Positions 3,058 to 31,582 of a stretch of 32,000 nt of DNA are shown piece after piece. Source of the DNA: Candidatus Baldrarchaeota archaeon (GTDB lineage Archaea > Asgardarchaeota > Baldrarchaeia > Baldrarchaeales > DXJG01); NCBI GenBank assembly GCA_019056805.1, contig DXJG01000004.1, positions 180,001 through 212,000 on the forward strand, given 5' to 3'. Numbering within the stretch: position 1 is the first letter of the stretch; every line of letters begins with the position of its first letter. A program made the translations under genes and the position numbers. The notes under the pieces are model-generated. The model was not told the DNA's origin, searched no databases, and was given only the letters and a program-made list of their open reading frames with translations.

Positions 3058-3873
3058 TTGGAGACTATTAAAAACGATATTAACAAATTAGTTAAAGGGT
3101 TACAAGCTTCCCCGTACATAGAAGCTGCTGCGATTTTTGTAAACCAAGGTTATCTTGTTGCTGGCTCTTTACCTCCTGATAGTGATAAAGTTGTACGAGG
3201 TTTTTTATCAATTACCCCTTTAAAAGAGGAGCAAAAAATGACTCTAGAAAGCAGTGAGGGCTCCTTAGGAATAGTTAAAGCAAAAAATCTCACAGCTGCA
3301 CTTCTCGCAAGAAAAGGAACTTCCATAGGACTATTATATGTTGAGTTAAAAAAGGCTTTAGAATCGCTTAAAAGATTTGAAGAAACTCGTCCAGAAATAG
3401 AGAAAATAATCGCCATTAAAGAGAAGGTTAGTCCTCCTTCCATTCCTTCAGAACCGTTGCAACCACCAATACCACCAGAACCAACTCCATTATCGAAACC
3501 TGAACCAGAAGTTATCAAAGAGGAAAAGCCAATTGAAGTTCCTCCCCCACCTCCTCCACCAACAGTGGAGAAAGAAAAATTGACTGTTGAAAAAGTTGAA
3601 GAAGTACCACCAAGCGAAGAAGCCGTAGAAGAGGTAGCCATCACTTGGAACAGCATTCTGAGTAAGAAATTATCCCTTATGGAGTTCTTAGATTTAGTTG
3701 AGAAAAATAAGTTAAACGAAAAATTTGGAAGCTGGCTTGCAGATCTTTTTATGCTCATTGACGGTGAAAAATCGGTTAGAGAACTAGCTAAAGGTATTGC
3801 ACGTAACGAGGGGGAGGTTCTAGAAGCTATAAAATTTTTGATTAGTAAAAAGGCGGTTGAAATAAAAGAGTAA
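3058..3873 (+). CDS. Roadblock/LAMTOR-like N-terminal domain + Pro/Glu-rich linker + C-terminal winged helix
   Basis: The N-terminus follows the roadblock pattern (IEAAAIFVNQGYLVAGSLP...SIGLLYVELKKALESL). The linker has a PPPPPPP tract. The C-terminus LIDGEKSVRELA...EVLEAIKFLISKKAVEI is wHTH-like. GGAGG SD precedes the TTG start. Confidence 0.7.
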   Translation: METIKNDINKLVKGLQASPYIEAAAIFVNQGYLVAGSLPPDSDKVVRGFLSITPLKEEQKMTLESSEGSLGIVKAKNLTAALLARKGTSIGLLYVELKKALESLKRFEETRPEIEKIIAIKEKVSPPSIPSEPLQPPIPPEPTPLSKPEPEVIKEEKPIEVPPPPPPPTVEKEKLTVEKVEEVPPSEEAVEEVAITWNSILSKKLSLMEFLDLVEKNKLNEKFGSWLADLFMLIDGEKSVRELAKGIARNEGEVLEAIKFLISKKAVEIKE

Positions 3874-3886
3874 GAGGGGATTAGGA

Positions 3887-4519
3887 ATGGTATTAAAAGA
3901 AAAATGGATTGATGCTGAAAAGTTTCCTAATACATACCCAGGAGGAATAATGGGAAGAAAAGATGCACGTAAAATCTTTGAACAATATAAAGTGACATTT
4001 GTGCCAAGTCATTTACTTGGTTTTTTAAGCTATAGTTTAACTAGTGTATTTGGAGATATGGAAAGATCGAGAAAAACTCTATACCATATTGGTAGGCAAA
4101 TTGGCAGAATGGTAGAGGAACTTTTAACTTACGGTAAGGTGGAACGTCCAGCTGAAAAGTTCAATGATTTAAATGACGTAATTAGAAATCATATCGGAAA
4201 TCTTAGAGTTGGACTTGAAGCTATTACGGGATTACCCGGTGATAACATTATAATGCGTGTAACTGAGGATCTAAACAAAATTAGAATTAGATTAATAGAA
4301 TGTCCACTTTGTACTTCTCTTAAATCTATGGGTTATAGAGAAGTCATATGGAAGATAAATGAACCTATGTGTGACTTCTACTCTGGACTTTTTGCAGGAT
4401 GGACCGAACATAGTATCAGAAATAATATCGGAGTCGAATGCAAAGAAACACGTTGTCAAATGGCTGATAAACACATTAACTTCTGTGAATTCTTGATTAC
4501 ACTTAAAAGACCAGAGTAA
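3887..4519 (+). CDS. V4R (4-vinyl reductase)-domain protein
   Basis: ECPLC...PMCDFYSGLFAG...KETRC...FCEF is the V4R signature, including C/E/C/C Zn-ligand positions. It starts 13 nt after the upstream stop. Confidence 0.8.
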   Translation: MVLKEKWIDAEKFPNTYPGGIMGRKDARKIFEQYKVTFVPSHLLGFLSYSLTSVFGDMERSRKTLYHIGRQIGRMVEELLTYGKVERPAEKFNDLNDVIRNHIGNLRVGLEAITGLPGDNIIMRVTEDLNKIRIRLIECPLCTSLKSMGYREVIWKINEPMCDFYSGLFAGWTEHSIRNNIGVECKETRCQMADKHINFCEFLITLKRPE

Positions 4520-15059: not shown

Positions 15060-15827
15060 TTAGGTGATGATTCCAAGGATAATTGAGGCAAGGTAAAGTA
15101 CTCCAGTAACCGTAAAGGGTAGGGTAATATTATCTATGCCTCTGGGCGACACTGCTTCCACAACCATACCTGTAATGGCCGCTATAAACGCTAAGATCAA
15201 AATTTGATTCCACATCAAGGGATAGAGACCACTGAACGGTCCGAAGAACCATATTGCGAGCAAAGCACCGACAAATCCTCCTGCAAAAACGCCCAATGAA
15301 CCTTCCACTGATCTTATTGCGCCTGGAAATATTTGGTATTGATGTTTTCCCCATTTTTTCCCTATGGGGGCTGCTAAACCATCTCCCCAGTACATCACTG
15401 TGAGTCCAGCTGCAGCTGTAAACATGTATTGTATTGGAAGTATTTGGAAAGAGAAAATTGCTACTAAGATCGTTATTGAAAGAGCGTAATAAAAGGGTCC
15501 GAAAATGTGCCCTGTTTCATAGTCTTCTTCGCGCGCCATCGCTTCAAACCAGCTTGTAAGCTTCTTCACAGGTGATTTTGGCCCGGTTAAATATAGTAGA
15601 ATGGTAAATGTTAATGCTACGATGGTTGCAGGCCAATAATGGGGATAAAAAGGACACGTATATATTGCAAAACCCGCAAAGAGGTGTATAACTTTTCTGG
15701 TGAATGAAGATGGGTAATTCTTTTTCTTTCTAAGCGCTTCGCCAATCGAGATTACGATTATGGTATATAGATAGGCTATAAGCATGACAATTAGATCCCA
15801 AAGATTAAAAATCTCCATTGTAAACAC
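15060..15827 (-). CDS. CTP-dependent isoprenol/diacylglycerol kinase (dolichol/phytol kinase, SEC59/VTE5/DGK1-like)
   Basis: TRKVIHL, WGDGLAAPIGKKWG, RSVEGS and DNITLP in a polytopic membrane protein. Confidence 0.85.
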   Translation of the reverse strand: MFTMEIFNLWDLIVMLIAYLYTIIVISIGEALRKKKNYPSSFTRKVIHLFAGFAIYTCPFYPHYWPATIVALTFTILLYLTGPKSPVKKLTSWFEAMAREEDYETGHIFGPFYYALSITILVAIFSFQILPIQYMFTAAAGLTVMYWGDGLAAPIGKKWGKHQYQIFPGAIRSVEGSLGVFAGGFVGALLAIWFFGPFSGLYPLMWNQILILAFIAAITGMVVEAVSPRGIDNITLPFTVTGVLYLASIILGIIT

Positions 15828-16042: not shown

Positions 16043-16492
16043 GTGTTCATGTTGAGCGGTGAAGAAGAGGCTTTAAAAGACTTTTATATGCACATACTTG
16101 CTGCAATCAGTGAATCCTTAGAAAAAATAGTAGGTCCAGGGTCAAGAGCATTGCTATACGCATCTGGAAAAGAATACGGAGAAAAACTAACTAAACCCGT
16201 CGAAAAAACCTCTAATTTAGAGGATGCAATTAAGAAATTATTGGAAGTTTTTCATTCAGTGTGGGAGATTGAGATAAAAAATGATGATCAAATAGTTGTT
16301 AGAAAATGTCCTATCAGAACTCTGTGTCAAAGATTAAATATAGAGAGAGGAGAAAAGGGTATGCTACTTTGCCACTACGTCGATGGTATATTTGCAGGGG
16401 CTCTTTCAGGGATTCTAGGGAAAACCATAGAGGTAAAGATTATAAAATCCGCACCAGTTGCATGTATGAAAAATCTCCTTATAAAAGACTAA
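16043..16492 (+). CDS. Stand-alone V4R/MetOD1-like domain protein
   Basis: LLYASGKEYG, IVVRKCPIR...LCHYVDGIFAGALSGILG...C. The real start may be ATG 16049 or TTG 16052 after the GAGGTG SD. Confidence 0.7.
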   Translation: MFMLSGEEEALKDFYMHILAAISESLEKIVGPGSRALLYASGKEYGEKLTKPVEKTSNLEDAIKKLLEVFHSVWEIEIKNDDQIVVRKCPIRTLCQRLNIERGEKGMLLCHYVDGIFAGALSGILGKTIEVKIIKSAPVACMKNLLIKD

Positions 16493-23350: not shown

Positions 23351-25309
23351 GTGAACAGAGTGAGGAAAGTATTTGCTACTTGTCCCAGAGATTGTTACGA
23401 TACCTGTTCTCTAATTGTCTATGTTGAAGATAATAAAATTGTTAAAATTGAAGGTAGAAAAGATCATCCAACAACTCAAGGATTCCTCTGTTCAAAAGCA
23501 AGGAAATACCTAAAATATGTTTACAGCAAGGATAGAGTTTTATATCCTATGAGAAGAGTTGGAAAGAAAGGTGAAGGAAAATTTAAGCGTATTAGTTGGG
23601 AGGAGGCTCTAAAAGAAATAACCAACAAGATAAAAGAAATAATTAGGGAATACGGGCCACAAGCCATATTGCACTATGAGTATGCAGGTCACTGTGGTCT
23701 TCTAAACTATTATTTCCCCTTAAGATTCTTTAATGCAATAGGAGCATCAAGTATTCAACATACAATATGCGATTCTGCAGGAGAAGAAGCAATAGCTTTA
23801 CACTACGGTTTACACTATGGATCTTTCCCAGGAGATATTTTGAAAGCTAAAATGATTGTTTTATGGGGTATAAACTCGGCTTGGACAAATCTTCACGGCT
23901 ACACACTTGTTTTAAAGGCTAAACGTAATGGGGCAAAAATTTATGTTATCGATCCGGTAAAAACGAAAACTTCAAACATAGGGATACACATACGTCCAAA
24001 GGTAGGTAGCGATGCAGCGCTTGCCCTTGGAATAGCAAACTACATCATAGAAAACAATTTGTACGATGAAAAGTTCATCGAGAAATATACTTTTGGTTTT
24101 GAAAAATTTAAAGAGCACGTAAAAAGTTTCACTCTAGATAAGACTTCCAAAATTACAGGATTATCTAAAGAGGAAATCACTAATTTTGCGGAGGATTATG
24201 CCAATCTCAAACCTAACATTATTCATATTGGCTATGGTATGCAACGACATTTAAATGGAGGGGAAATTGTTAGAGCGATATGTCTTCTTCCAGCCTTAAT
24301 AGGCTTACATAGAGGTTTCATCTATTGTAATGGAGTTAGAGATTTCGACCTAGACTATCTTACTGGAAAAAATTTGAGAAAAGTTCCAGAGAAAAGCATC
24401 AATATGGTTCAACTCGGCATGGCTCTTAAAAACGGGGAAATTAAAATGATTTTCATTTACGGTGCTAATCCCCTTATCACCCTTCCTAACCAAAATCTTG
24501 TACGAAGAATTTTCCAGCAAGAGGACTTATTTATCGTTGTACATGATATATTTAAGACTGAAACAGCAAATTACGCTGATATTTTACTTCCAGCAACAAC
24601 GTTCTTCGAAACTGTGGATGTACATGTTTCTTATTGGCATGAATATATCTCTATTAATGAAAAGGCTATTGAACCCTTGGGAGAAGCAAAAAGTAACGTA
24701 GAATTGTTTAAGGAACTAGCAAGGTACATGGGTCTAAATGATAAAGAACTTTATGAAGATGAATGGGAAATCATAAGAAATCTGTTGGCTAAAAGTAAAA
24801 TGGTTAACTTCACCTTGGAAGAATTGAGATCTAAGGGATTTGCTAAACTTAAGACTTTTCCGAAAGATGAATATCAGACGCCATCAGGTAAAATAGAATT
24901 TTACTCTCAAAAAGCTGAGCAAAGAGGTCTAAATCCATTACCACAACATGTAGAAATTAAAGGTAAATATCCTATTTTTCTCCTTACACCTAGGCATCGA
25001 GATATCTTAGGTTCTCAATTTAGAAATGTTATGCCTAGATTTGAACCTGTAATTGAAATAAATATTGAAGATGCCGTTGAACGAGGTATAAAAGATGGAA
25101 ATATTGTTGCTGTGTATAACGATTTAGGAGAAATTGTCTTAAGGGCTAAGGTTTCAGATAAAGTTCCTAGAGGTGTAGCATTAGCATATTTTTTCATTAA
25201 GGATCTAAAGGGAAGATGCATTAATACTCTTACTACTGATGAAACGCAGATTTATGGCGGATGTTCAACATTCAACTCCACTTTCATAGAAATTCGGAAA
25301 TTAAAGTAA
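23351..25309 (+). CDS. Cytoplasmic Mo/W-bisPGD oxidoreductase catalytic subunit (MopB_3/YyaE-YoaE-like, substrate unknown)
   Basis: CPRDCYDTC...FLCSK [4Fe-4S] motif, HTICDSAG (probable Cys metal ligand), LWGIN, YGANP, ADILLPATT, TPSGKIEF and a C-terminal binding domain. No Tat signal. Confidence 0.9.
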   Translation: MNRVRKVFATCPRDCYDTCSLIVYVEDNKIVKIEGRKDHPTTQGFLCSKARKYLKYVYSKDRVLYPMRRVGKKGEGKFKRISWEEALKEITNKIKEIIREYGPQAILHYEYAGHCGLLNYYFPLRFFNAIGASSIQHTICDSAGEEAIALHYGLHYGSFPGDILKAKMIVLWGINSAWTNLHGYTLVLKAKRNGAKIYVIDPVKTKTSNIGIHIRPKVGSDAALALGIANYIIENNLYDEKFIEKYTFGFEKFKEHVKSFTLDKTSKITGLSKEEITNFAEDYANLKPNIIHIGYGMQRHLNGGEIVRAICLLPALIGLHRGFIYCNGVRDFDLDYLTGKNLRKVPEKSINMVQLGMALKNGEIKMIFIYGANPLITLPNQNLVRRIFQQEDLFIVVHDIFKTETANYADILLPATTFFETVDVHVSYWHEYISINEKAIEPLGEAKSNVELFKELARYMGLNDKELYEDEWEIIRNLLAKSKMVNFTLEELRSKGFAKLKTFPKDEYQTPSGKIEFYSQKAEQRGLNPLPQHVEIKGKYPIFLLTPRHRDILGSQFRNVMPRFEPVIEINIEDAVERGIKDGNIVAVYNDLGEIVLRAKVSDKVPRGVALAYFFIKDLKGRCINTLTTDETQIYGGCSTFNSTFIEIRKLK

Positions 25310-25658: not shown

Positions 25659-26228
25659 ATGGAATTGGATTCAACAAAACCACTAATTAAAATTGATGAA
25701 GAAACCAGCGATTTTATAGCTGAAATATTGGAAAAAGGGGCGCAAATATTTCCAAAAGAGGAATTAGAGAGAATTCTCACATGTATTCAATGCGGGACAT
25801 GTTATGGAAGTTGTCCTTCTGGTAGAATAACGGCATATCATGTTAGAGTAATCATGAGAAAAGCACAACTAGGCCTCAAAGAAGAGGTATTAAAAGATGA
25901 AAACCTATGGAACTGCACAACCTGCTATACCTGTCAAGAAAGGTGTCCCAGAGAAGTTGAAACAACAGATACCATTCGATTAATTAGAAACATGGCTTTT
26001 GAAGCAGGGTACGTGAAAAAACCACATCTAATAGTTTCAAGGAACTTTATTGAAACAGGACACAGTATACCTTTGAGAGATGAGGACAAGGAAAAGAGAA
26101 AACGTGTAGGTGTATCTGAAATACCTCCAACCACCTTAACCTATCCAGAAGCTCTAAAAGAAGTTCAAACATTAGTTGAAGCTACTGGTTTTAAAGAAAA
26201 GGTTTTAAAACTTTTGGAGGAAGGGTAA
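25659..26228 (+). CDS. hdrC: Heterodisulfide reductase subunit C
   Basis: Two [4Fe-4S] motifs, CIQCGTCYGSCP and WNCTTCYTCQERCPR. Its stop directly abuts the hdrB ATG. Confidence 0.95.
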   Translation: MELDSTKPLIKIDEETSDFIAEILEKGAQIFPKEELERILTCIQCGTCYGSCPSGRITAYHVRVIMRKAQLGLKEEVLKDENLWNCTTCYTCQERCPREVETTDTIRLIRNMAFEAGYVKKPHLIVSRNFIETGHSIPLRDEDKEKRKRVGVSEIPPTTLTYPEALKEVQTLVEATGFKEKVLKLLEEG

Positions 26229-27116
26229 ATGACAAAATACGCTTTCTTTCTAGGCTGCATTGCACCTCTCAGATATCCAGGTCTTGAAGCCGCAACAAAA
26301 AGGGTTATGCAACATTTTAACATAGAACTTTTAGATTTAAATGGTGCATCGTGTTGTCCAGCTCCAGGAGTTTTCGGTAGCTTTGACTTGTGGAACTGGC
26401 TTGTAGTAGCTGCAAGGAATCTTTCACTTGGAGAATCACTTAATGCTGACCTAACAACCATTTGCAATGGTTGTTATGCAACTTTACAAGAGGCATGGCA
26501 CATATTAAAGGAAGATCCCAGCAAACGGAGACGTGTAAACGAAGTTTTAAGTAAAATTAACAGAAATTACAACGCTAAGACAGGAATTAAACATATAATC
26601 GAGGTTTTTGCTAACGATATAGGAATCGACAAAATAAAATCATCTGTTGAAAAATCTCTTGAAGGTCTAAAGGTTGCAGTTCACTATGGATGTCACTTTT
26701 TAAAGCCTAGAAAAATAAGAGGTCATGGTTCGAGTGAGAAGCCGCATATACTTGAGGATATTGTTACAGCTCTTGGCGCCGAGCCTGTACACTATAAGGA
26801 AAAATTGCTCTGCTGTGGTGCTGGCGGAGGGGTAAGGGCAGGCAACCTAGATGCAGCTCTAGAGATTACAGCAAGAAAATTAGCAAGTGTAAAAGAAGCC
26901 GGCGCCGACTGCATTCTTAACCCATGTTCCTTCTGTCACTTTCAATTCGACAGGGGACAGGTAGAACTTCGAGAGAGAAAAGGAATCGAATTTAATATCC
27001 CAGTGATTCATCTTGTTCAACTAGTTGGTTTAGCGATGGGAATTGACCCTAAAAGCCTAGGGCTGTATGAAAATGAAATTCCTCCAACATATCTAGATAA
27101 GCTAGGTTTGAGGTGA
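26229..27116 (+). CDS. hdrB: Heterodisulfide reductase subunit B
   Basis: Two CCG domains: FLGC...SCCPAPG...CNGC and HYGCH...CCGAGGG...CSFC. GTGA overlap with hdrA. Confidence 0.95.
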   Translation: MTKYAFFLGCIAPLRYPGLEAATKRVMQHFNIELLDLNGASCCPAPGVFGSFDLWNWLVVAARNLSLGESLNADLTTICNGCYATLQEAWHILKEDPSKRRRVNEVLSKINRNYNAKTGIKHIIEVFANDIGIDKIKSSVEKSLEGLKVAVHYGCHFLKPRKIRGHGSSEKPHILEDIVTALGAEPVHYKEKLLCCGAGGGVRAGNLDAALEITARKLASVKEAGADCILNPCSFCHFQFDRGQVELRERKGIEFNIPVIHLVQLVGLAMGIDPKSLGLYENEIPPTYLDKLGLR

Positions 27117-29509
27117 AAACTTTGGAGAAACCCCGTGTAGGTGTTTTCATATGTGAATGCGGTGGAAATATATCCGACGTTGTGGATGTTAAAAAAGTTG
27201 TTAAAACGGCTTCAGAATGGGAAAACGTCCTTGTAGCAAGGCATTACACTTACATGTGTTCAAAACCTGGTGTTGAACTCATCAAACAATCAATTAAAAA
27301 AAGAGAGCTAAACAGAATAGTTATTGCTTGTTGTACACCAAAAATGCATAGAAAAATGTTTGAGAGAAACGTGGGAGAGGAGGGTATAAACCCAGCATTT
27401 CTAGAAATTGTTAACGTTCGTGAACAATGTTCCTGGGTACATCATGGAGACAATGAAGGAGCAACTCAGAAAGCCATAGATCTCATTAGAGGTGCGGTTA
27501 AAAAAGTTGAAAATGCTGTTCCCCTACATCCTGGTAAAATGCCTGTTAAACCCGCTGTATTAGTTATCGGTGGCGGTATTGCCGGTATAACCGCTGCTTT
27601 ACGCGTTGCCGAAGCAGGAATAAAAGTTTACCTAGTTGAAAAAGAACCAACAATTGGAGGTCATATGGCTAAATACGCCAAAGTTTTCCCAACTCTAGAT
27701 TGTGCTCAATGTATTTTAACACCTAAAATGGGAGATGTTGCAGAAAATCCAAACATTGAGCTCTTTACTCTTGCTGAAGTAAAAGCTGTTGAAGGTGTTC
27801 CAGGAGATTTCAAAGTTAAAATTAAGCTTAAGCCTAGGGGAGTTGACGTTGAAAAATGTGTTGGTTGCGGTGCCTGTAATCGTGTATGTCCCGTTGAAAC
27901 GGTTTCCGATTTCGATGAGGGATTAGGAAAACGAAAGGCAATTTACATACCATTCCCACAAGCAGTTCCCTCAGCCTACGTTATAGATTTTGATAGCTGC
28001 ACAAAATGTGGAAAATGCGCTGAAAAATGTCCTAGAAAGGCTATAAACCTTGAAGATACAGAAAAAGAAATAGAAATAAATGTTGGAGCTATTATAGTTG
28101 CCACAGGTTTCAAACTTTTCGATTTAAGCGACTACGGCGAATACAAATACGGTATGCATCCAAACGTCATAACCGCATTACAAATGGAACGATTAATGAA
28201 CGTAGCAGGACCCACAAGCGGTGCCATAGTCCGTCCCAGTGACGGGGGAGAAGTCAAAAAGATAGGTTACATTCTATGCGCAGGATCGAGAGACACAAAC
28301 AAGGGTAAACCTTACTGCAGCCGTGTATGCTGTCTATATGCTACTAAGCAAGCATTAATGATGAGAGAATTCATGGAAGGCTTAGATATATGGATCCACT
28401 ACATAGATTTAAGAGCGGCAGGAAGGAGATACGAAGAATTCTATAAGAACGCTCAGATTGAAGGAGTAAAATACGTTAGAGGAAAAGTGTCAGAAATAAT
28501 TCCCGATGGAGATCAATTAATTGTCAGAGCCGAAGACACGATGTTAGGTAGACCAATAGAAAACAAGTACGATCTTGTAGTTCTATGTCCACCAATAGTA
28601 CCAAGCCCTGATATAACTAAACTCGCCGAAATACTAAAGATTCCACTTGATGAAGACGGTTTTGTCCTTGAAAAACATCCAAAACTCGATCCAGTTGCAA
28701 CAAAACGTGAAGGTATCTTCGCTTGCGGAGTTATAACAGGACCAAAAGATATACAAACATCGGTTTCAGAGGCTGAAGGAGCAGCTGCAAAAGCAATAAA
28801 CTTCCTAATACAAAAAGAGAAAATCATTGAACCAAACAAAGCCTATCTTGCCGTACCCGAAAAGTGCGATGCCTGTGGAGAATGTATTGAAGTATGTCCA
28901 ACCGAAGCAATCAGTATTGCAAGCGAGAAAGTTGAAATAAACGAAATTCTCTGTAACGGATGTGGAGCTTGTATACCCGCATGTCCCAAAGAAGCATTAG
29001 ACCTCAAAGGGTTATCAGAGAAACAATTAATGGCTGAAATAGAAGGAATATTAACCGGATCAGAATCTGAAATTAAAATACTTGCATTTGTCGAAAATGA
29101 AATCGCTTATACAGCCCTTGACCTAACCGGTGTCGCTCGTCTATCTTATCCAAGCAGTATCAGAGTTATACCCGTGCCTTCTACTAGCAGATTGAAGTTA
29201 AAACACATATTATACGCTTTTGCCAAGGGTGCTGATGGTATAATGTTCCTAGAAGCACCTGAACATGAAGGTCCATTCGGAAAAGCTCATGCAATTGCAG
29301 AAGAAAGAATTGAAAACTATAAATTTGACATCGAAGACTACGACGTTGATAGTATCAGACTCTGGTTCTCAAAAGTTTATGTTCCAGACTGGAGAAAACT
29401 GGTGAAAGTCTTTGAAACATTTGATAGAATGATAAAAGACGAAGGCCCCATAGAACAAGAAGTAAGAGAAAACATACTTAAACAGTTATCACAAGAAACA
29501 GATACCTAA
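27113..29509 (+). CDS. hdrA: Heterodisulfide reductase subunit A fused to a Cys-free MvhD-like C-terminal domain
   Basis: CECGGNI/MC/ACCTP/EQC N-terminal cluster, GGGIAG FAD motif and FPTLDCAQC. Inserted ferredoxin (CVGCGACNRVCP, CTKCGKCAEKCP), CAGSR...YCSRVCC and a C-terminal 2x[4Fe-4S] domain, followed by an MvhD-like fold from about 29075. Confidence 0.95.
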   Translation: MKTLEKPRVGVFICECGGNISDVVDVKKVVKTASEWENVLVARHYTYMCSKPGVELIKQSIKKRELNRIVIACCTPKMHRKMFERNVGEEGINPAFLEIVNVREQCSWVHHGDNEGATQKAIDLIRGAVKKVENAVPLHPGKMPVKPAVLVIGGGIAGITAALRVAEAGIKVYLVEKEPTIGGHMAKYAKVFPTLDCAQCILTPKMGDVAENPNIELFTLAEVKAVEGVPGDFKVKIKLKPRGVDVEKCVGCGACNRVCPVETVSDFDEGLGKRKAIYIPFPQAVPSAYVIDFDSCTKCGKCAEKCPRKAINLEDTEKEIEINVGAIIVATGFKLFDLSDYGEYKYGMHPNVITALQMERLMNVAGPTSGAIVRPSDGGEVKKIGYILCAGSRDTNKGKPYCSRVCCLYATKQALMMREFMEGLDIWIHYIDLRAAGRRYEEFYKNAQIEGVKYVRGKVSEIIPDGDQLIVRAEDTMLGRPIENKYDLVVLCPPIVPSPDITKLAEILKIPLDEDGFVLEKHPKLDPVATKREGIFACGVITGPKDIQTSVSEAEGAAAKAINFLIQKEKIIEPNKAYLAVPEKCDACGECIEVCPTEAISIASEKVEINEILCNGCGACIPACPKEALDLKGLSEKQLMAEIEGILTGSESEIKILAFVENEIAYTALDLTGVARLSYPSSIRVIPVPSTSRLKLKHILYAFAKGADGIMFLEAPEHEGPFGKAHAIAEERIENYKFDIEDYDVDSIRLWFSKVYVPDWRKLVKVFETFDRMIKDEGPIEQEVRENILKQLSQETDT

Positions 29510-29578
29510 ACAATTCATTTTTAATTTCTATTTATTAAAAACTAGAATCGAATAAAAAGATTGAAAATTGATGGAAAT
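29510..29578. terminator. Putative bidirectional oligo-T terminator region between convergent hdrA and gcvH-like genes
   Basis: 69-bp AT-rich gap with T-tracts on both strands, consistent with archaeal intrinsic termination. Confidence 0.35.
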
Positions 29579-30010
29579 TTATTTCTTGGCTTTTTCCATC
29601 TCTTTCTTTAACCATTCCTCTAATTTCGCATGGTCCGATCCTGGTATAAGATTTTTTAATTCTTCATCTAGATTTTCAGGTTCTATTATTGCGATCCACC
29701 CTTTTCCATAAGGATCATCATTTATTAGCGATGGATTTTTCTGAACTTCTTCATTTAACTCAACGATTTTCCCCGTGACCGGGGATTTTAATGGTCCGAC
29801 CCACTTTCCACTCTCGATTGTTCCAAGGGTTTTCCCTTGCTTTACTGTCTGCCCAACTTTTTTAGTCCTGATGAAGAGAATTTTTCCCGCAGCACTTTGA
29901 GCCCAGTCATTATATCCTACTTTTACCTTTCCATCTTCTATTTTTGCCCACATATGGTCAGGGTGGTAGTATAAGTCATCTGGGAATTCATGTTCTCCTA
30001 TCTTAACCAT
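29579..30010 (-). CDS. GcvH-family lipoyl-carrier protein, LbpA-like type
   Basis: FPDDLYY...HMWAK...GYNDWAQSAAGKI...TIESGKWVGPLKSPVTG...INDDPYGKGWI, with lipoyl Lys69. The start is ATG 30010 (GGAGGA SD). Confidence 0.92.
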   Translation of the reverse strand: MVKIGEHEFPDDLYYHPDHMWAKIEDGKVKVGYNDWAQSAAGKILFIRTKKVGQTVKQGKTLGTIESGKWVGPLKSPVTGKIVELNEEVQKNPSLINDDPYGKGWIAIIEPENLDEELKNLIPGSDHAKLEEWLKKEMEKAKK

Positions 30011-30198
30011 CTTAATACTCCTCCATCCACTATTACATCTAACCAATTTATACAACTTACTTAAAATATTATTCCCATTTCACAGAAGGTTTAATGATAC
30101 CAATGATCCTATTATTTGATTCGAAAAATAAGTTTTAAGATTAATAAACAAATAAAATTAAGGGTCATGTGTTGATATAAAGATTAAAAATAGTTTGT

Positions 30199-30900
30199 TT
30201 AGCCTTCAAATGTTATATAGAAGTGACAAGCATCGTCTCCTCTTATAATCGTTGATGCAAGATTAACAACTACATCCTTTTCAGGTTTAAATTTACTAAA
30301 AATATATGAAAAACTTAATTCGTGAATTTTACACGGAATTTCTTTGAGTTCTCCTTTTAAAGCATGGCTAATTTCCTGAAATATACAATTTCTTATGACA
30401 ATAAATATTTCTTTTCCATCTAATTTTTTAAGTTCACAATACATGCCCATATCATTGAGCTCATCTCTAAGAACATTCCAGAATCTATCAGTTGCTAATA
30501 CATCCTCACCATGTTTTCTCTTTAAACATTTAATTACGTCTTCGCCTAAAATATTTCCAACTTCCATAACCCAAGCATCTATTTCTTTATTACCATATTT
30601 TCGAGCGAATGCTTTGATAAGAGCTTGTGTAAGTAAGGGATAGTTTCTTGGTGGGTATATAAACATGAAGGGTTTTCTAAGCTTGTAAACCGTTGCTGGT
30701 CTACCTACACTTTCCTTTAAAAGACTTGTTTCAACATATCCATTTGACGAAAGTTCATCTAAAATATTTTTAATAGACGTATAGCTTAAACCTGTATTTT
30801 GAGAAATTTCAAGGATTGTAGCTGAGGGGTTAACTGTTAGATATTCTAGGACCATTTGCATTCTCTTAAACTTATCACGTGGCTCCATAATTGTTCCCAT
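30199..30900 (-). CDS. HTH transcription regulator with C-terminal V4R-like/SufR-like Cys sensor domain (COG2345-like)
   Basis: N-terminal wHTH (TILEISQNTGLSYTSIKNILDELSSNGYV...GRPATVY). The C-terminal domain has NC-x17-C-x34-C plus one more Cys. Confidence 0.8.
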   Translation of the reverse strand: MGTIMEPRDKFKRMQMVLEYLTVNPSATILEISQNTGLSYTSIKNILDELSSNGYVETSLLKESVGRPATVYKLRKPFMFIYPPRNYPLLTQALIKAFARKYGNKEIDAWVMEVGNILGEDVIKCLKRKHGEDVLATDRFWNVLRDELNDMGMYCELKKLDGKEIFIVIRNCIFQEISHALKGELKEIPCKIHELSFSYIFSKFKPEKDVVVNLASTIIRGDDACHFYITFEG

Positions 30901-31150
30901 TTTAACTCACACATATAAACTTTAAATCATGATATTTAAGCATTTTCTCATCAATTTTAGAACAATGCAATGAAAACAACAAAAAACAAGTACATCTACT
31001 ACTAACAATATGAAATATATTCAAAATTAACTTCGATTTCCAGCAACTTTATTTTCAAATATAATGCGACAAATGAGCTTTTTTATAGTTTTATTTCGTT
31101 AAAAGCGATATATAAAGATATAATTTAAAGATAAGAGAGGAGGTATGCAT

Positions 31151-31582
31151 TTATGTAGCTAAGTATTTTTGAAGAGCATTTTCCAAAGGTCCTTGACCAA
31201 CTGCTCCTACAATTTTCTCCACTGGTTTCCCATTTTTGAATATAATAAACGTTGGAATACCCATGATATAATATCTCTGAGCAACATCTGGATTTTCATC
31301 AACATTCAACTTAGCAACAATAACTTTCCCAGCATATTTCTTTGCAAGAGCTTCCACAACAGGAGCCATCATACGACAAGGCGCACACCATTCAGCCCAA
31401 AAATCTACAAGCACTGGCAACTTTGCATTATTTATAACTTCATCGAAATTTTTTGAAGTCAGCTTTATAACTTTCCCTTCCGAGCCAAAATTTGGTTCTG
31501 ATTTCTCCTTAGTTGACATCATCAGTTCCCTAGCTTTTTTCGCCAGTATTTTTTCTAATTCCGGGTCTTTTTCTTCACTCAT
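31151..31582 (-). CDS. trxA: Thioredoxin with N-terminal helical extension
   Basis: DFWAEWCAPC active site, AKLNVDENP and cis-Pro motif GIPT. Confidence 0.95.
   Translation of the reverse strand: MSEEKDPELEKILAKKARELMMSTKEKSEPNFGSEGKVIKLTSKNFDEVINNAKLPVLVDFWAEWCAPCRMMAPVVEALAKKYAGKVIVAKLNVDENPDVAQRYYIMGIPTFIIFKNGKPVEKIVGAVGQGPLENALQKYLAT

Follow-up and report, generated by a model that had tools for sequence, protein, structure and literature searches.

A 32,000-nucleotide stretch of DNA from a Candidatus Baldrarchaeota archaeon (GCA_019056805.1, contig DXJG01000004.1, positions 180,001 to 212,000), referred to here as the window, encodes a predicted heterodisulfide reductase (Hdr) of the soluble methanogen kind and, facing it in convergent orientation, a lipoyl carrier protein related to the lipoate-binding protein LbpA of sulfur oxidizers. 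We propose that the lipoyl arm of this carrier serves as the dithiol/disulfide substrate of the window HdrB, a reading to which we give a probability of roughly one half. Few energy-metabolism genes are more widespread than those for HdrABC in Asgard archaea, Bathyarchaeia and further uncultured archaea of anaerobic habit, and a wetland study of Asgard counted them among the most transcribed metabolic genes; the substrate of the enzyme in such archaea is still written as an "unidentified heterodisulfide" (e.g., PMC11291895). A lipoyl group bound to a dedicated, highly conserved carrier would be a concrete candidate for this substrate, testable in vitro, and, if the proposal is correct, metabolic reconstructions of these lineages would change, among them those used to model the archaeal ancestor of eukaryotes. 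The window offers a clean case, combining a fully methanogen-like Hdr with a genome in which neither a coenzyme M (CoM) pathway nor a lipoamide dehydrogenase was found.

The identities of the genes, the affinity of the carrier to LbpA and the comparative linkage described below are direct observations. With the H protein of the glycine cleavage system (GcvH) the carrier shares the fold and the position of the lipoyl-lysine (PF01597; PDB matches at 1e-24 to 1e-25), and it differs from GcvH in clade, motif (GKW instead of SVKA), charge and the gcvT context. The start codon is most likely the ATG at 30010 (MVKI...), which the 35 homologues in the alignment all share, rather than the TTG at 30055. 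Within the carrier family the mean column identity is 79% over 36 sequences, with invariant GYNDWAQ and ESGKWVG blocks, and the nearest database protein, also from Candidatus Baldrarchaeota, is 92% identical. The lysine motif ESGKWVGP is common to the carrier and to bacterial LbpA linked to the sHdr system of sulfur oxidizers, whereas canonical GcvH has ESVKA. The isoelectric point (pI) of the carrier is 6.1, compared to medians of 5.3–5.4 for its clade and of 4.2 and 4.6 for canonical bacterial and archaeal GcvH, respectively; as a calculated pI, which is not the same as surface electrostatics, this value agrees with the description of LbpA as having a basic, not acidic, surface around the lipoyl-lysine and a pI above about 4.5 (Dahl laboratory, bioRxiv 10.64898/2026.10.01.755906).

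In a maximum likelihood tree (95 sequences, 141 columns, LG+G4) all GKW-type carriers from archaea and the sHdr-linked LbpA of bacteria make up one clade, with ultrafast bootstrap (UFBoot) and SH-aLRT values of 98 and 92, and canonical archaeal and bacterial GcvH fall outside it; a quick tree of 158 sequences agrees. The window carrier joins the Bathyarchaeia first (98/88) and next the copy from a sister family within the class Baldrarchaeia (99/92), and is thus nearer to Bathyarchaeia than to most other Asgard carriers, which suggests lateral transfer between lineages. When 185,579 species genomes were scanned for the pattern, two groups were returned, the Bathyarchaeal orthologues and bacterial LbpA in textbook sHdr clusters. 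No gcvT lies beside a gene of the carrier clade at any of the 43 loci examined, and five Bathyarchaeal genomes have one gcvT-linked GcvH together with a separate copy of the carrier type. The host genome, too, encodes a canonical gcvT-gcvH pair (on contig C6) and gcvP (gcvPA/PB, on C17), and the carrier is only 41% identical to that gcvT-linked GcvH. Taken together with the motif, the pI and the tree, these data led us to reject the carrier as a glycine-cleavage H protein. A third GcvH paralogue type, with an SVK motif and not beside gcvT, occurs in the Asgard groups f2, f8 and f13 (L152-L156, L158); in the tree it is placed not in the GKW/LbpA clade but with or close to the canonical copies.

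The Hdr genes themselves show close similarity to those of methanogens. HdrB aligns to HdrB of M. thermolithotrophicus (PDB, 5ODC) at 3.4e-106, with all CCG cysteine motifs in register, and HdrA aligns to a methanogen HdrA (PDB, 8RVU_a of 8RVU) at 2.7e-200 over residues 2–648. The HdrA2 profile NF040770 scored 876 bits, under its cut-off of 1100, and the curated HdrA/HdrA2 equivalog cut-offs were not reached. On the basis of the matches to solved structures and of HdrB and HdrC scores above the curated TIGRFAM cut-offs (Table 1), we assign the enzyme to the soluble methanogen type. The stop codon of hdrC (TAA) directly abuts the ATG of hdrB with zero gap, and hdrB and hdrA overlap by GTGA, as read from the sequence; the three genes, the last of them a fusion of hdrA and mvhD, are translationally coupled.

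Conservation of the gene neighborhood carries most of the argument. Within the class, represented by five genomes, the carrier lies at most 2.5 kb from the orthologous hdrB in all four genomes that have a carrier, in two different arrangements; the fifth genome (82% complete) has neither the carrier nor an orthologous hdrB. In the sister-family genome G007 the genes gcvH2-lplA-hdrC-hdrB-DUF2096, gcvH2 being the carrier gene and lplA the lipoate ligase gene, are tightly packed on one strand, the first two overlapping by 4 bp. This unit (L016, C84:63000-82000) and a group-4 [NiFe] hydrogenase cluster with nuoA/B/C/D(NiFe)/H/I-like genes are oriented divergently, and the NuoD-like large subunit of the hydrogenase keeps both NiFe CxxC motifs; past the hdr end of the unit follow genes assigned by cluster to the Mrp type (antiporter-like), and the neighborhood also includes an AIR-synthase-related (HypE-like) gene. 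In gene content the G007 locus resembles an Ehd/Ehe-type hydrogenase-Hdr cluster, here in an Asgard archaeon, like the Ehe cluster of Culexarchaeia.

Comparable arrangements recur in other archaea. In the Asgard group f15 (L159/L172, G041:C6, about 364–374 kb) a GlcD-like gene, an HdrD-like gene, hdrA (1017 aa), a GKW carrier, hdrC and hdrB follow one another on one strand, with the carrier 3 nt upstream of hdrC. One Bathyarchaeon has the order hdrA-mvhD-hdrC-hdrB-mvhG-mvhA-hycI-carrier-lplA on one strand, and on a Desulfurococcales contig the carrier lies between its ligase and CCG/hdrCBA genes. On three Bathyarchaeal contigs NarI-like (HdrE/DsrM-type) and Fer4-CCG (HdrD-type) genes are directly upstream of the carrier, and in Bathyarchaeia and the Asgard group f7 a GlcD-like flavoprotein and a Fer4-CCG protein adjoin it. 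Of the 28 carrier loci from beyond the genus that have 4 kb or more of flanking sequence on either side, 12 have a CCG-domain gene within 4 kb, and these 12 represent about seven distinct arrangements; at canonical gcvT-gcvH loci from the same kinds of genomes none was found within about 8 kb (0/10). Fisher's test gives p = 0.016, a value that is indicative only, since the loci are related and not independent. The genes in the comparison loci were called by our own script for open reading frames (ORFs), CCG domains were detected with a hidden Markov model built from the 20 CCG domains of the host genome, and the samples are phylogenetically clumped. The hdrCB-linked GcvH copies of the Asgard groups f15 and f12 were not counted as additional support, as they are SVK-type and canonical-like in the tree.

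The capacity of the host, a Baldrarchaeia-like Asgard genome of 1.92 Mb with 34% G+C, is compatible with a lipoyl-based substrate; absences at the genome level rest on an assembly that is 91% complete. No McrA or ComA was found in it, and no ComE above the cut-off, which makes CoM-S-S-CoB, the heterodisulfide of CoM and coenzyme B (CoB), an unlikely substrate. A lipoamide dehydrogenase was not found either. The sole protein with a clear Pyr_redox_dim match is a 455-aa flavoprotein (C9:526357-527724), rejected for this role as it is CoADR/Nox-like and scores 160 bits against a TIGR01350 cut-off of 408; the glycine cleavage system accordingly seems to be without an L protein, and something else must re-oxidize dihydrolipoyl groups. 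Lipoate attachment is provided for by two ligase systems on contig C9, both unlinked to the carrier: a split LplA/LplB-like ligase (C9:534.6-535.5 kb; C9:534443-535508) that is orthologous, with 56–63% identity, to the carrier-adjacent ligases of Bathyarchaeia, and a second one (C9:427.9-428.9 kb) that shares 43.5% identity with a bacterial sLpl(AB) and stands beside LipS-like radical-SAM genes, the sLpl(AB)-like/LipS-like set spanning C9:427865-429848 and 436067-437104 (C9:428-437 kb). A weaker LipS-like pair is present at C1:635-2610. Besides the carrier, the only candidate lipoyl acceptor found was the canonical GcvH, E2-type lipoyl proteins not having been searched for. The genome contains ten CCG-domain genes and, on another contig, a second HdrA-MvhD. 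The public sequencing runs listed as containing the locus are DNA metagenomes throughout, with no RNA run among them.

An initial annotation of the window, made from its sequence alone, had called the carrier LbpA-like, which the motif, the pI and the tree bear out, setting it apart from the glycine-cleavage H protein. It had further proposed a synteny check of hdrABC with carriers of the ESGKWVG type, and linkage of the two was seen wherever a relative within the class possesses the carrier and recurred independently among other archaea; a check of the host genome, also proposed there, gave the inventory described above, with McrA, ComA, ComE and lipoamide dehydrogenase not detected, gcvT-gcvH and gcvP elsewhere, and ligases and LipS-like genes present. 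Within the class we encountered none of the contrary findings accessible to computation that it had named, such as unlinked carrier and hdr genes, a carrier clustering with gcvT or gcvP, or CoM/CoB and Mcr genes in the genome.

How the carrier might serve HdrB can be outlined as follows. The dedicated ligase from contig C9 would attach the lipoyl group to it, and the lipoyl-lysine arm would then reach into the hydrophobic tunnel of HdrB, where the second lipoyl thiol would take the place of CoM and the arm would mimic CoB. The lipoyl-lysine arm is an N6-(6,8-dithio-octanoyl) amide, chemically near the 7-mercaptoheptanoyl amide of CoB. Electrons would pass between HdrB, HdrC and the bifurcating flavin adenine dinucleotide of HdrA, with ferredoxin as one partner, and the fused MvhD domain would be the docking site for a third partner, the candidates being the Mo/W enzyme encoded upstream (see below), coenzyme F420 in its reduced form (F420H2) and a hydrogenase. 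That the arm is bound by HdrB and acted upon is our inference; as to direction, reduction of the lipoyl disulfide and re-oxidation of the dithiol (confurcation) are equally conceivable. Precedents for the components exist: LbpA is genetically essential for sHdr (PMC6067878), and the GcvH of the Culexarchaeia Ehe cluster has been proposed as a disulfide carrier for HdrB (Kohtz et al. 2022, PMC9723716). Co-folding of HdrB and the carrier, run without controls, gave a score of 0.00, which speaks neither for nor against binding.

Several observations weigh against this proposal. The carrier and the hdr genes are convergent and hence not co-transcribed. The residues of M. thermolithotrophicus HdrB that contact CoM-SH and CoB-SH are R14, G46, G198, R201, F233 and R240 (PMC13261682, a structure-activity paper of 2026), and the window HdrB retains all six, including the three arginines for the anionic head of CoB; R14, R201 and R240 are all present in Baldrarchaeia HdrB. 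In contrast, among the homologues compared (window 26229-27116; L016:7284-8174; L159:9275-10162; L053:3987-4847; L064:11646-12542), the HdrBs in the tightest GKW-carrier operons have lost R201 and mostly R240, Mvh-linked Asgard HdrBs have lost R240, and bacterial sHdrB has lost all three CoB arginines and differs at every pocket residue examined. The pattern of CoB arginines in HdrB may thus be a read-out of the type of substrate. The HdrB of the sister-family operon, beside its carrier, also retains six of six contact residues, however, which makes the pocket argument ambiguous and lets it cut both ways. In the Asgard groups f8 and f18 the closest hdrB orthologues are in classical mvhA-mvhG-mvhD/hdrA-hdrC-hdrB clusters far from the carrier, which is elsewhere with its ligase, often beside nuo-like hydrogenase genes; in f9 (13 genomes, 12 genera) HdrB is present together with only SVK-type GcvH, so Hdr there must use something else. 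Neither the window carrier nor any of its 25 Bathyarchaeal relatives has a cysteine, and the two-cysteine hallmark of bacterial LbpA is thus missing, a feature to which archaeal exceptions are known (Cao et al. 2018, PMC6067878). A given gene would by chance fall within 3 kb of one of ten CCG genes in 1.92 Mb with a probability of ~3%, which is low but not negligible, and the case therefore rests on conservation in relatives. Furthermore, the midpoint potential of lipoamide is about –290 mV, compared to about –140 mV for CoM-S-S-CoB, and bifurcation from H2 or formate would consequently be nearly thermoneutral.

The convergent orientation, the intact pocket, the unlinked or carrier-less Hdr of f8, f18 and f9 and the ten CCG genes of the host are in line with a reading in which the adjacency has no functional meaning and the linkage is due to chance or merely regional, HdrABC reducing a CoB-like, anionic small-molecule heterodisulfide, as has been assumed for other Mvh-Hdr systems of Asgard, and the carrier having a role independent of Hdr. 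We consider this rather unlikely, given that the linkage persists in a different, co-directional order in the sister family, that at least five further independent arrangements of carrier and CCG genes exist in other archaea, and that none of the ten canonical gcvH loci has a CCG neighbor and no CoM pathway was detected in the genome. The initial annotation had the full-length bifurcating-type Hdr cycle a protein-bound lipoamide, and this claim stands in part: the LbpA-like carrier, the linkage and the absence of detected CoM genes favor it, and the same convergence, f8/f18/f9 distribution and six conserved contacts hold it back. The coupling to amino-acid or 2-oxoacid oxidation that had been added to it finds no support in the data.

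Two other roles of the carrier have to be weighed. It might act as in sHdr, its lipoyl dithiol bringing sulfane sulfur (a persulfide or trisulfide) to HdrB in sulfur/polysulfide metabolism or sulfur trafficking. The sister relationship to sHdr-linked LbpA, the resemblance of the upstream Mo/W enzyme to thiosulfate/polysulfide reductase (2VPW, 2.5e-52) and the two cysteine desulfurases, NifU and thioredoxin expected just downstream from synteny with relatives are in line with such a role, which nonetheless seems improbable to us: neither the window ORFs scanned against Pfam nor the precomputed Pfam annotation of relatives, to 10 kb downstream, showed a DsrE, TusA or rhodanese (a search that did not extend to the whole genome), the Hdr, with its full-length HdrA, belongs to the methanogen type and not to sHdrC1B1AHC2B2, and the two LbpA cysteines thought to bind sulfur are missing. 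For the same reasons of HdrA length, gene set, missing cysteine pair and lack of sulfur transferases found nearby, the locus was rejected as an sHdr system. The carrier could also be a lipoyl relay, that is, an acceptor in lipoate assembly as GcvH is in Bacillus, or a thioredoxin-linked redox buffer under the neighboring regulator, with Hdr merely the next gene. A lipoate ligase is indeed the tightest neighbor of the carrier in most Bathyarchaeia and at many Asgard loci, and in the window thioredoxin and the regulator are on its strand. These two genes are not conserved beside it outside the genus, though, the only other lipoyl acceptor found is the canonical GcvH, and such a function would leave the recurrent CCG neighbors and the embedding of the carrier between hdrA and hdrC unexplained, so that we hold it to be very improbable.

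Among known systems, sHdr-LbpA (Hyphomicrobium denitrificans, Thioalkalivibrio; PMC6067878) is alike in the clade, ESGKWVGP motif and raised pI of the carrier, in the presence of a dedicated lipoate ligase and LipS-like genes in the host genome and in the CCG-domain, HdrB-type catalytic partner. It is unlike the window in its gene set, which is shdrC1B1AHC2B2 (or type II) with a short sHdrA of about 350 aa, as opposed to a single hdrC and hdrB and a 798-aa HdrA-MvhD; moreover, the window HdrB has 60%-level similarity to the solved methanogen HdrB, the carrier has no cysteines, and the host is an anaerobic Asgard archaeon rather than a sulfur oxidizer. The Mvh-HdrABC and HdrA2B2C2 enzymes of methanogens (Wagner et al. 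2017, PDB 5ODC; Yan et al. 2017) share the six HdrB contacts and the HdrA match, and HdrA2 of Methanosarcina is also an HdrA-MvhD fusion; the differences are the absence of detected Mcr, ComA and ComE from the host genome and of mvhAG from the locus, and the Mo/W enzyme upstream. In the Culexarchaeia Ehe cluster (PMC9723716) a GcvH-family gene lies beside hdr genes (HdrBC, HdrA2B2C2) in a non-methanogen without CoM or CoB; the window, from a genome with no detected CoM pathway, shows a similar pairing, and the likeness extends, in the sister-family genome, to the combination of a group-4 [NiFe] hydrogenase, hdrCB, a carrier and a ligase. In the window, by contrast, no hydrogenase or antiporter genes are present among the scanned ORFs and the carrier faces a complete soluble hdrCBA; the Culexarchaeia proposal was neither tied to the LbpA clade nor tested across lineages. 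The sHdr-LbpA system is established, and the idea of a GcvH-Hdr pair in non-methanogens has been published once (PMC9723716). What is added here is a case, in an Asgard class, of an LbpA-type carrier opposite a methanogen-like HdrCBA-MvhD whose CoM/CoB pocket is intact, the linkage of the two across this class in two gene orders, and the contrast in pocket residues among carrier-linked HdrBs. A further parallel is offered by the DsrMK(JOP) system of sulfate reducers, where the small protein DsrC carries a disulfide/trisulfide reduced by a CCG-domain (HdrD-like) subunit and is thus the protein-borne disulfide substrate of DsrK; unlike the carrier, DsrC employs two cysteines instead of a lipoyl cofactor and has an unrelated fold.

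A broader reading, which we put forward tentatively and regard as possible rather than probable, is that LbpA/GKW lipoyl carriers serve non-methanogenic archaea in general (for instance Asgard, Bathyarchaeia, Culexarchaeia and some Thermoproteota) as their protein-bound "heterodisulfide", cycled by interchangeable CCG modules, bacterial sHdr-LbpA having branched from an older redox loop that ran on lipoyl groups. These modules would include Mvh-HdrABC, HdrA-MvhD-HdrBC, HdrBC on group-4 hydrogenases, HdrDE-like membrane enzymes and GlcD-type dehydrogenases. If the lipoyl arm of such a carrier proves to be the substrate of HdrB, the Hdr of methanogens, the sHdr of sulfur oxidizers and the DsrC-type systems would be joined under one principle.

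The gene upstream of hdrC (Table 1), on the same strand at a distance of 349 bp, encodes a molybdenum/tungsten (Mo/W) enzyme with an N-terminal [4Fe-4S] motif, and no gene for a partner subunit was seen adjacent to it. It is related to the alpha subunit of formate dehydrogenase (Fdh), with a best PDB match to FdhH (4.7e-57), and also resembles acetylene hydratase besides the thiosulfate/polysulfide reductase mentioned above. As a canonical formate dehydrogenase it was rejected, as the score against TIGR01591 is 354 bits with a cut-off of 666 and the selenocysteine-histidine pair of FdhH (Sec140/His141) aligns to Ser/Ala in the HMMER alignment; a cysteine two residues upstream (TICDS) could be a metal ligand if the alignment is shifted. 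The position upstream of hdrC is kept within the genus (close relatives L011-L013), and the enzyme was not found beside hdrCB in the sister-family genome G007. It is possible that the Mo/W enzyme is the electron-input module, or donor, of Hdr, its membership in the system being uncertain.

Table 1. Positions (window coordinates), strand and characteristics of the genes at the Hdr-carrier locus
Feature	Position	Strand	Characteristics
Mo/W bis-pyranopterin guanine dinucleotide (bisPGD) oxidoreductase, cytoplasmic	23351-25309	+	652 aa; Fdh/DMSO-reductase superfamily; Pfam Molybdop_Fe4S4, Molybdopterin, Molydop_binding
hdrC	25659-26228	+	2x[4Fe-4S] subunit; TIGR03290 199.6 bits (cut-off 160); Fer4 dicluster domains
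hdrB	26229-27116	+	catalytic CCG subunit, non-cubane cluster type; two CCG domains (PF02754 twice); TIGR03288 411.6 bits (cut-off 345)
hdrA-mvhD fusion	27113-29509	+	798 aa; full-length bifurcating-type flavoprotein, HdrA2-like; FlpD/MvhD domain at residues 656-775
Convergent spacer	29510-29578	.	69 bp, AT-rich; hdrA stop to carrier stop; read from sequence
LbpA-type (GKW-type) lipoyl carrier, here "GcvH2"	29579-30010	-	143 aa; PF01597 6e-37; lipoyl-lysine in IESGKWVGP; no Cys
Winged helix-turn-helix (wHTH) regulator	30199-30900	-	HTH_24 1.8e-6; C-terminal ATC_hydrolase/V4R-like domain (ATC_hydrolase 7e-4, below cut-off); 5 Cys
Thioredoxin (WCAPC)	31151-31582	-	TIGR01068 125 bits; N-terminal extension of 35 aa

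The overall layout agrees with the initial annotation, which had described coupled hdrC-hdrB-hdrA genes converging over 69 bp on a lipoyl carrier, followed by a helix-turn-helix regulator and thioredoxin; ORFs, family assignments and the reading of the sequence all concur. Its statement that mvhAG, fdh, mcr, dsr and gcvP/T are absent has to be narrowed: there was no Pfam match to mvhAG, mcr, dsr or gcvP/T among the larger window ORFs scanned, with a few ORFs left unscanned, and, given the Fdh-alpha-like enzyme upstream, the absence of fdh holds only in the strict sense. The regulator, which it had labeled a Cys sensor, is at most a putative one. The suggested participation of thioredoxin as a partner of Hdr and of the regulator as a part of the system did not hold up. 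Both genes, the regulator (cluster c76, n=2) and thioredoxin (cluster c75, n=2), are neighbors of the carrier only within the genus, and they were rejected as conserved members of the system.

Four sizeable ORFs of the window have no Pfam match (3-1874 on the minus strand, 2217-2888, 3058-3873 and 15060-15827), the first of which, at least 624 aa long, is cut by the window edge. Weak matches to V4R or ATC_hydrolase-like domains were obtained for three window proteins (3887-4519, 16043-16492 and the regulator at 30199-30900); the domain type suggests binding of small ligands, and in one case it is fused to the wHTH regulator beside the carrier. Beyond the window (C11:212001-217200), synteny with relatives indicates an Lrs14/Sta1-type regulator, a CoA-binding protein, a NifU-like gene and a 370-aa protein without assignment, as well as two class-V aminotransferases that are cysteine desulfurase-like. 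Judging from its predicted gene content, this downstream set beside thioredoxin looks like an Fe-S or sulfur-trafficking cluster.

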